From NCBI RefSeq assembly GCF_003334385.1, contig NZ_QOWN01000131.1: a DNA stretch of 1,053 bases. One strand, given 5' to 3'. The stretch is from Escherichia coli (GTDB lineage: Bacteria > Pseudomonadota > Gammaproteobacteria > Enterobacterales > Enterobacteriaceae). Shown here in pieces: positions 116 through 1,053 of this stretch (positions are counted from its first letter, which is position 1; every line of letters begins with the position of its first letter). A program made the position numbers and the translations under genes. The notes below the pieces were generated by a model. That model searched no databases, was not told the origin of the DNA, and worked only from the letters and a program-made list of their open reading frames with translations.

Positions 116-313
116 ATGCTGAAACAGCAGGATATGACCGAAACCGCCAGAGTGGTGTTTAATGAATTAAGTGCCACCGAACCGGCGACAGTCGGGGAGA
201 TTGCGCAGAATACTTACCTTTCACGTGAACGCTGCCAGTTAATACTGACCCAGCTTGTTATGGCGGGGCTGGCAGACTATCAGTTCGGTTGTTACAGACG
301 CCTTCAGTCCTGA
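116..313 (+). CDS. Small hypothetical protein, 65 aa, putative winged-helix DNA-binding protein
   Basis: ATG 116 with SD-like AAGGGA 7 nt upstream; stop TGA 311-313. Translation: MLKQQDMTETARVVFNELSATEPATVGEIAQNTYLSRERCQLILTQLVMAGLADYQFGCYRRLQS. The pattern (T-x-x-EIA ... hydrophobic helix LILTQLVMAGL ... aromatic/basic tail) resembles small wHTH regulators such as MarR-like or PapI/FaeA-like proteins; this is pattern-based inference, not a database hit. Frame 2 is open from the window start, so the ORF track's GTG 29 or a start outside the window cannot be excluded; ATG 134 is another in-frame alternative. Confidence 0.55.
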   Translation: MLKQQDMTETARVVFNELSATEPATVGEIAQNTYLSRERCQLILTQLVMAGLADYQFGCYRRLQS

Positions 314-327
314 AGGCTTTTTTATTT
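300..327 (+). terminator. Rho-independent (intrinsic) transcription terminator
   Basis: Perfect 7-bp stem GCCTTCA (300-306) pairing with TGAAGGC (311-317), 4-nt loop GTCC (307-310), followed by the T-tract TTTTTTATTT (318-327). The stop codon TGA (311-313) of the upstream ORF lies inside the stem. On the minus strand the hairpin is not followed by a U-tract, so it is unidirectional. Confidence 0.7.
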
Positions 328-340
328 GTGGTAAATGGGC

Positions 341-371
341 GGCTGGTGGGTGTTAGGGGCACTCACCAGCC
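341..371. repeat. GC-rich imperfect inverted repeat / stem-loop (12-bp stem, 7-nt loop), function unknown
   Basis: GGCTGGTGGGTG (341-352) pairs with CACTCACCAGCC (360-371): 11 Watson-Crick pairs plus one G-T (G-U in RNA) at 349/363; loop TTAGGGG (353-359). No downstream U-tract (followed by ATCTGCTCATGCG). Confidence 0.5.
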
Positions 372-431: not shown

Positions 432-463
432 AATGAGCCTATCAGAGACAGGCTTAATGATCC

Positions 464-1053
464 ATGCTTAGTACTGTAAAAATATCCAGTTGTGAGTTAA
501 TCAACGCCGACTGCCTGGAATTTATCCGGTCGTTACCCGAAAATTCTGTTGACCTGATAGTCACGGACCCGCCGTACTTTAAAGTGAAGCCTGAGGGCTG
601 GGATAACCAGTGGAAGGGCGACGATGATTACCTGAAGTGGCTGGACCAGTGTCTTGCGCAGTTCTGGCGGGTGCTGAAACCTGCCGGAAGTCTTTACCTG
701 TTCTGTGGCCATCGCCTGGCGTCTGACATTGAAATCATGATGCGTGAACGCTTCAATGTGCTGAACCATATTATCTGGGCGAAGCCGTCCGGACGCTGGA
801 ACGGGTGCAACAAGGAAAGCCTGAGGGCATATTTCCCCGCCACAGAGCGCATTCTGTTCGCGGAACATTATCAGGGGCCGTATCGCCCGAAAGATGCCGG
901 GTATGAGGCGAAGGGCAGGGCACTGAAACAGCATGTGATGGCCCCGCTGATTTCTTACTTTCGTGATGCGCGTGCTGCCCTGGGGATAACGGCAAAACAG
1001 ATTGCTGATGCCACAGGAAAGAAAAACATGGTGTCGCACTGGTTCAGTGCCAG
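464..1053 (+). CDS. DNA methyltransferase, beta-class amino-MTase (N6-adenine or N4-cytosine; DPPY favours N6-adenine), 5' partial - C-terminus beyond window end
   Basis: Frame 2 is open from ATG 464 to the window end (196 codons, no stop). The only canonical in-frame start after the TAA/TGA stops at 455-460 is ATG 464. Translation begins MLSTVKISSCELINADCLEFIRSLPENSVDLIVTDPPYF... Motifs: DLIVTDPPYF (residues 31-40, catalytic motif IV), RVLKPAGSLYLF (residues 69-80) and HIIWAKP (residues 102-108), in the order typical of the N6_N4 MTase family with motif IV N-terminal. The AdoMet-binding motif I (FxGxG type) is expected downstream, outside the window. SD is weak (ACAGG 448-452, 11 nt upstream). 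Confidence 0.9.
   Translation, partial: MLSTVKISSCELINADCLEFIRSLPENSVDLIVTDPPYFKVKPEGWDNQWKGDDDYLKWLDQCLAQFWRVLKPAGSLYLFCGHRLASDIEIMMRERFNVLNHIIWAKPSGRWNGCNKESLRAYFPATERILFAEHYQGPYRPKDAGYEAKGRALKQHVMAPLISYFRDARAALGITAKQIADATGKKNMVSHWFSA
472..491. promoter_or_regulatory. LexA (SOS) box-like palindrome inside the 5' end of the methyltransferase ORF
   Basis: TACTGTAAAAATATCCAGTT: CTG (474-476) - 10 nt AT-rich spacer - CAG (487-489), with 5' TA flank. Matches the E. coli LexA consensus TACTGTATATATATACAGTA at 16 of 20 positions, with all six core CTG/CAG bases intact. Lies at +9 to +28 relative to the A of ATG 464, which is atypical for a LexA operator. Confidence 0.4.

Follow-up and report, generated by a model that had tools for sequence, protein, structure and literature searches.

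A predicted lambda-repressor-like helix-turn-helix domain in the probable target-recognition domain of an M.EcoGII-family prophage methyltransferase of Escherichia coli

M.EcoGII and related enzymes

As a non-specific m6A 'footprinting' enzyme, M.EcoGII has found wide use both in chromatin mapping and in RNA work. It is a non-specific adenine methyltransferase (MTase), which acts on A in DNA as well as in RNA regardless of the context, is silent in the lysogen and is harmful when over-expressed (PMC5778455). Murray et al. (2018) described the MTase of phage 1720a-02 as very similar to M.EcoGII, and suggested that the enzyme is of benefit by protecting progeny DNA broadly from restriction (PMC5778455). 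In 2018 (PMC5778455) and again in 2020, the authors reported no unusual domain in the region of M.EcoGII corresponding to the target-recognition domain (TRD).

Such a domain was described by Ochiai et al. (2024), according to whom the TRD of M.EcoGII contains a helix-turn-helix (HTH) and is tied to the catalytic core by a long charged linker (PMC11551740). Size-exclusion chromatography showed M.EcoGII to be dimeric; in the published AF2-multimer model the dimer interface is formed by residues 97-110 and 116-140, and a positively charged surface spans TRD and linker (PMC11551740). Further, the exchange E179Q in SUPREM, an engineered relative or ancestor, cuts RNA methylation 3.4-fold (PMC11551740). 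The closest site-specific relative is M.PflMI (CCANNNNNTGG; 27% identity), which by published description has a similar predicted TRD but, unlike M.EcoGII, lacks the highly charged linker (PMC11551740). The HTH-containing TRD of this enzyme family has been in print since 2024, and the feature analyzed here is already known. It is of some practical use. Engineering of M.EcoGII may be aided by the knowledge that its nucleic-acid-binding part is probably an HTH domain. For annotation, the 'DNA-methyltransferase' found 3' of Q in about 40% of the complete E. coli genomes can be named an M.EcoGII-family enzyme, and the internal HTH of these MTases should not be taken for a separate regulator or for a gene fusion.

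The methyltransferase gene and its prophage

The DNA analyzed here (the window) is a stretch of 1,053 nt from E. coli. It is matched at 100% by several complete E. coli chromosomes, and a match of at least 80% identity exists in 2206 of the 5426 complete E. coli genomes (~40%). Among phage records, 39 match the window; these are mostly Stx-converting phages, many of them Stx2-converting, and the top match is phage 1720a-02 (97% at the nucleotide level). As a reference we used locus L001 of E. coli SCU-104, in which the window corresponds to positions 6001-7053 with a 100% DNA match.

The MTase gene starts with an ATG at nt 464 and runs past the end of the window after codon 196. The translated part ends with ...FRDARAALGITAKQIADATGKKNMVSHWFSA. 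At full length (L001 6464-7522) the gene encodes a protein of 352 aa, annotated as 'DNA-methyltransferase' (CDS WP_016232051.1). This protein shares 328 of 349 residues (94%) with M.EcoGII, for which we took the sequence given in Table S1 of PMC11551740, machine-read from the PDF and containing a few evident reading errors. The two enzymes have the same architecture, with a DPPY half, an HTH-containing TRD, a long helix and an FxGxG half. They differ in length (352 aa versus 349 aa), in their C-terminal tail and by about 20 substitutions. In the segment of interest only one position differs, and this may be due to the machine reading of the reference. The features of the window are compiled in Table 1.

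Table 1. Coordinates of features in the 1,053-nt window
Feature	Position (nt)	Strand	Basis
Terminator-like hairpin GCCTTCAG-tc-CTGAAGGC, followed by T-run TTTTTTATTT	300-327	+	Pattern scan and inverted-repeat search
Second stem-loop GGCTGGTGGGTG / CACTCACCAGCC; 12-nt arms (92% complementary), 7-nt loop, no T-run	341-371	+	Inverted-repeat search
Imperfect 8-bp hairpin/inverted repeat AGCCTGTC-tct-GATAGGCT	436-454	-	Terminator pattern scan
Beta-class N6-adenine DNA methyltransferase, M.EcoGI/M.EcoGII family, 5' part (codons 1-196 of 352)	464-1053	+	Translation, DNA match, Pfam, M.EcoGII identity
DPPY catalytic motif (motif IV), residues 35-38	566-577	+	Sequence reading
IIWAKP motif, residues 103-108; on the final conserved strand of the core, ahead of the variable middle region	770-787	+	Sequence reading
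Predicted basic helix leading from the core to the HTH domain, residues 146-158	899-937	+	AlphaFold2 secondary structure
Predicted HTH helix 1, residues 160-173, APLISYFRDARAAL	941-982	+	AlphaFold2 models
Predicted HTH helix 2 ('positioning' helix), residues 177-184, AKQIADAT, includes position 179	992-1015	+	AlphaFold2 models
Predicted HTH turn, residues 185-189, GKKNM	1016-1030	+	AlphaFold2 models
Predicted HTH helix 3 ('recognition helix' position), residues 190-194, VSHWF, short	1031-1045	+	AlphaFold2 models

In SCU-104 the gene is located in an integrated lambdoid prophage adjoined by ompW. The gene order is replication protein P ... RusA, Q antiterminator, a 65-aa ORF, the 352-aa MTase, tRNA-Ile and tRNA-Arg, with the lysis genes (holin, lysozyme) further on. 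These flanking genes identify the MTase gene as a prophage gene, and this setting is the same as that of M.EcoGII and M.EcoGI, which are encoded in prophages of E. coli O104:H4 C227-11. The tRNA-Ile and tRNA-Arg are found directly 3' of the MTase gene, and an Rfam scan of L001 5500-8200 revealed nothing beyond these two tRNAs. In Stx phages, tRNA-Ile and tRNA-Arg are arranged just upstream of stx. Here a 142-aa ORF annotated as 'TolA' and a SASA-family esterase follow, and there are no stx genes in that place (tRNAs and following genes: L001 7563-7724 and 8003-8431). Two genes of the prophage are pseudogenes, namely a DUF1627 gene, which is truncated, and a DnaT-like replication gene, which is frameshifted (L001 432-722 and L002 9536-10583); the prophage may therefore be defective.

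Catalytic core and HTH domain

The class assignment of the MTase is supported by a Pfam match to N6_N4_Mtase (PF01555) covering residues 29-340 (E 4.7e-43). The AdoMet-binding FxGxG motif is present as FMGSG at residues 310-314, so that the motifs appear in the order required for the beta class, namely DPPY, TRD, FxGxG. In an alignment of 74 family sequences, D35 of the DPPY motif is invariant, while P36, P37 and Y38, as well as W105 and K107 of the IIWAKP motif, are at least 90% conserved. The latter motif lies on strand E97-106 in the AlphaFold2 model, and the predicted catalytic fold is of the Rossmann type common to the solved beta-class members. Among these, M.BceJIV (8urk), M.MboIIA (1g60), M.PvuII (1boo), CcrM (6pbd) and M.RsrI (1eg2) were matched by phmmer with E values from 1e-25 to 1e-7. 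In these five enzymes only the core can be aligned (203-223 residues), whereas their middle regions are different, mostly shorter, and contain neither the HTH module nor the long helix. By sequence, solved beta-class MTases align only to residues 8-142 and 269-347, and structural alignments cover only 200-225 of the 352 residues. We also considered an assignment of the HTH segment to the catalytic core. This was discarded, since both the sequence and the structure alignments skip residues about 143-268.

The original prediction had placed an HTH-like segment at nt 965-1053 (residues about 168-196), downstream of an IIWxK motif, and had noted that the window ends inside it. These positions are right within one codon: codon 168 begins at nt 965, and the peptide of 30 residues quoted at that time, RDARAALGITAKQIADATGKKNMVSHWFSA, corresponds to residues 167-196 (nt 962-1051). 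Both the IIWAKP and the DPPY motif lie upstream of the segment. Moreover, the window indeed ends within the module, since the predicted domain extends to about residue 220 in the full-length protein.

Structure prediction with the full-length ORF, which had been proposed as a check, clearly speaks for an HTH. The AlphaFold2 model of the whole protein (pLDDT 94.5, pTM 0.88) contains helices at residues 146-158, 160-173, 177-184, 190-194, 204-220 and 231-255, and the helix-turn-helix geometry of the segment is predicted at pLDDT >90. Lower confidence was obtained for the loop of residues about 136-145 preceding helix 146-158 (mean pLDDT 80 for residues 131-140 and 66 for residues 141-150). When the isolated module (residues 153-217) was modeled with an alignment of 64 sequences, the same helices were predicted (pLDDT 95.3). 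In the predicted model, helix 2, turn and helix 3 can be superposed on solved lambda-repressor-like members. According to these models, the segment consists of the first three helices of a lambda-repressor-like HTH domain, including the turn between the second and the third. Helix 3 is followed by the conserved loop SASQWQLP, which is partly located past the end of the window.

At the sequence level, the best non-methyltransferase match is Pfam HTH_3 (PF01381). It corresponds exactly to residues 167-195, but is weak (E 0.061 with the whole protein, 0.0029 with the isolated module). Additional weak Pfam matches to the isolated module were Pou-specific and HTH_31, and HTH_3 was detected at E<=0.1 in only 4 of 64 family modules; all sequence-level HTH matches of the module fall below curated thresholds. 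With NCBIfam, no family was found for the isolated module even at E<=10, and comparison of the module family profile to PDB sequences returned no HTH protein but chance-level matches only. A profile alignment (hhalign) to the cI protein of the same prophage paired LISYFRDARAALGITAKQIADATGKK with ISERIRNRRKDVGLTQQQVAKAIGIS in the canonical register (P 3e-4, probability 39.5%). The alignment was limited to residues 162-187, which match the first two helices of cI in register. The same procedure gave no meaningful alignment to the Cro protein of the prophage. Altogether, the similarity of the module to HTH families is marginal in sequence, and the support from predicted structure is much stronger.

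The canonical signature G-(I/L)-T/S-x-x-Q-(I/L/V)-A-x-x-x-G of the Xre/HTH_3-type regulators, such as the N-terminal domain of lambda cI, P22 c2, ClgR and the controller C proteins of restriction-modification systems, is also present in the module. By inspection of the sequence, P202, close to the beginning of the last helix, is at the place of the conserved Pro of Xre domains. In contrast to these regulators, the module is internal to an enzyme and not free-standing, its helix 3 comprises only 5 residues in a region which is conserved and not variable across the family, and it probably binds without sequence specificity.

To see whether the insert is shared by other MTases, 1.84 billion cluster representatives (50%-identity clusters) were searched with query residues 113-281. 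Matches were obtained in 295 clusters at E<=1e-3, 121 of them at E<=1e-10. In the best 150 of the 295 module matches, 72 sequences were 300-420 aa long. The complete module matches listed were almost all MTases of 330-390 aa, in which the module occupies residues about 110-290, and most of them contain both DPPY and FxGxG. Also in the alignment of 74 family sequences the module occupies the same position. Thus, the module is conserved in about 295 clusters, almost all of them MTases which have it at the same place.

Near-invariant residues outside of the core are Y165, G174, H192, Q198, W199, P202, Y207, R256, R257, F259, D269 and W271 (74-sequence alignment). In the first part of the domain, Y165 is conserved to 95%, G174 to 91% and G185 to 69%. 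Helix 3 and the next loop are strongly kept, with 76-97% conservation at H192, F194, S197, Q198, W199, L201 and P202 (H192, Q198 and W199 91% each, F194 82%, P202 97%). In helix 2 and the turn, the most frequent residue accounts for 12-39% at most positions. With a conserved helix 3 next to a variable helix 2, it is unlikely that helix 3 reads the sequence. A recognition helix which does so would be expected to show the reverse pattern, and DNA contact through the classic HTH face is therefore no more than putative. The short, conserved helix 3 would better fit a conserved role in structure or in contacts to the backbone than the reading of bases.

In distant relatives, the long helix after the HTH is a tandem heptad (L-R-R-E-Y-E-D)n with variants such as LKREYDD and LRADYDA, present in one to about five copies. 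The heptad region is 10 to 67 aa long and is found in the alignment columns of query residues 216-256 (L001 7109-7231, beyond the window). Judged from this alignment, the pattern points to a tether between TRD and core, the length of which may vary by gain or loss of 21-nt repeats.

Possible role of the HTH domain

We consider it highly probable that the segment represents helices 1-3 of an Xre/Cro-C1-type HTH domain (residues about 160-220), and that this domain is the TRD of an M.EcoGII-family prophage MTase. Two roles had been offered for it in the original prediction, either recognition of the target or autoregulation by a DNA-binding insert. The former is supported by the location in the TRD slot, the predicted HTH fold, the family-wide position and the work of Ochiai et al.; we found nothing in favor of the latter. 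Since the best-studied member of the family is non-specific, 'recognition' most likely means non-specific binding of nucleic acids.

The HTH domain interrupts the Rossmann core (residues about 1-135 and about 260-352) and is tethered to it by the basic helix 146-158 on one side and by the long helix 231-255 on the other side. For the mechanism, we infer by analogy with the nearly identical M.EcoGII that the enzyme is a homodimer with a dimeric division of labor, and that HTH domain and charged linkers together form a positive surface, which would hold DNA or RNA without reading its sequence. Adenines would then flip into the DPPY pocket and become methylated irrespective of their context. For the orientation of the HTH to the active site and for the surface charge, we relied on the published AF2-multimer description (PMC11551740). 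Sequence-independent methylation of DNA and RNA was demonstrated for M.EcoGII and is carried over here to the present allele, which is probably non-specific as well. Because its gene is located downstream of Q in the Q-dependent late region, the MTase is probably expressed only upon prophage induction. The induced enzyme would methylate phage DNA broadly and in this way could confer protection from restriction.

Several other explanations were weighed against the proposed nucleic-acid-binding TRD. The fold could lack any contact to nucleic acids and serve as a scaffold, for dimerisation or for docking of a partner, with the basic linkers and the core binding the substrate. This would be in line with the shortness of helix 3, which together with the next loop (H192, F194, Q198, W199, P202) is the most conserved part, and with the distribution of charges: within residues 160-220, 7 K/R are balanced by 7 D/E (net charge zero), and positive charge is mainly found in the flanking helices (5 K/R versus 2 D/E in residues 136-159, and 7 versus 5 in residues 221-258). 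However, the published dimer interface is outside of the HTH domain, and the published positive surface includes the TRD in addition to the linker (PMC11551740). Position 179, at which the exchange in SUPREM lowers RNA methylation (PMC11551740), is within HTH helix 2 in the numbering of our MTase. Further, the site-specific M.PflMI has kept the same TRD while the charged linker is absent, so that something in its TRD must bind DNA. Altogether, a pure scaffold is improbable. A somewhat less remote, though still unlikely, variant is that the recognition helix was repurposed as a clamp or as an aid in base flipping instead of being a base reader. Specificity would then be set elsewhere, for example by the heptad helix acting as a ruler between the DNA-binding and the catalytic parts. 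That the HTH may not read bases is suggested by the pattern M189-x-x-H192-x-F194...S197-Q198-W199-x-L-P202, which is nearly invariant across hundreds of diverged MTases, while helix 2 and the turn vary. Finally, the HTH-like pattern could be a chance resemblance in a helical linker without any HTH domain, as might be thought from the subthreshold HTH_3 match, the lack of HTH proteins among the PDB matches and the low hhalign probability. Yet two independent high-confidence AlphaFold2 models predict the fold, and another group independently concluded the same for M.EcoGII (PMC11551740), which makes a mere coincidence hardly conceivable. The proposed TRD with an HTH fold remains our preferred reading.

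The N-terminal HTH regions of some C5-cytosine MTases (for example M.SsoII), or separate C proteins, repress their own transcription. Following these examples, the HTH described here could be an autoregulatory module, which binds an operator near its own promoter and represses transcription of the MTase gene. We regard this as very improbable for several reasons. The module is located in the TRD slot between the core halves of a protein which offers no other candidate for nucleic-acid binding, and it is kept there in the diverged clusters mentioned above, from many hosts. In addition, the location of the gene in the Q-antiterminated late region already accounts for its silence in lysogens. At the DNA level, a scan of the whole window for sigma-70-like promoters was negative, and hence there is no promoter or operator support for autoregulation. 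Between nt 300 and 480, the search for inverted repeats revealed none besides the hairpins at 300-317 and 341-371, both well upstream of the ATG, and thus no candidate operator of the MTase gene.

The region upstream of the MTase gene has some additional features. The terminator-like hairpin (300-317) includes the stop codon of the 65-aa ORF (311-313) and is located about 135 nt 5' of the MTase start. It is a plausible late-region terminator, which would be read through by Q-modified polymerase. The imperfect inverted repeat on the minus strand lies 10 nt 5' of the MTase ATG, and one of its pairs is an A·C mismatch on the plus strand. The 65-aa ORF itself (WP_000917743.1; window positions 116-313, plus strand) is located between the genes of the Q antiterminator and the MTase and matches PHROG 331 (E 1.8e-37). 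NCBIfam gave a weak hint to HTH regulators of the Lrs14 type (E 0.073), and from its sequence (…ATVGEIAQNTYLSRERCQLILTQLVMAGL…) the product looks like a small winged-helix protein.
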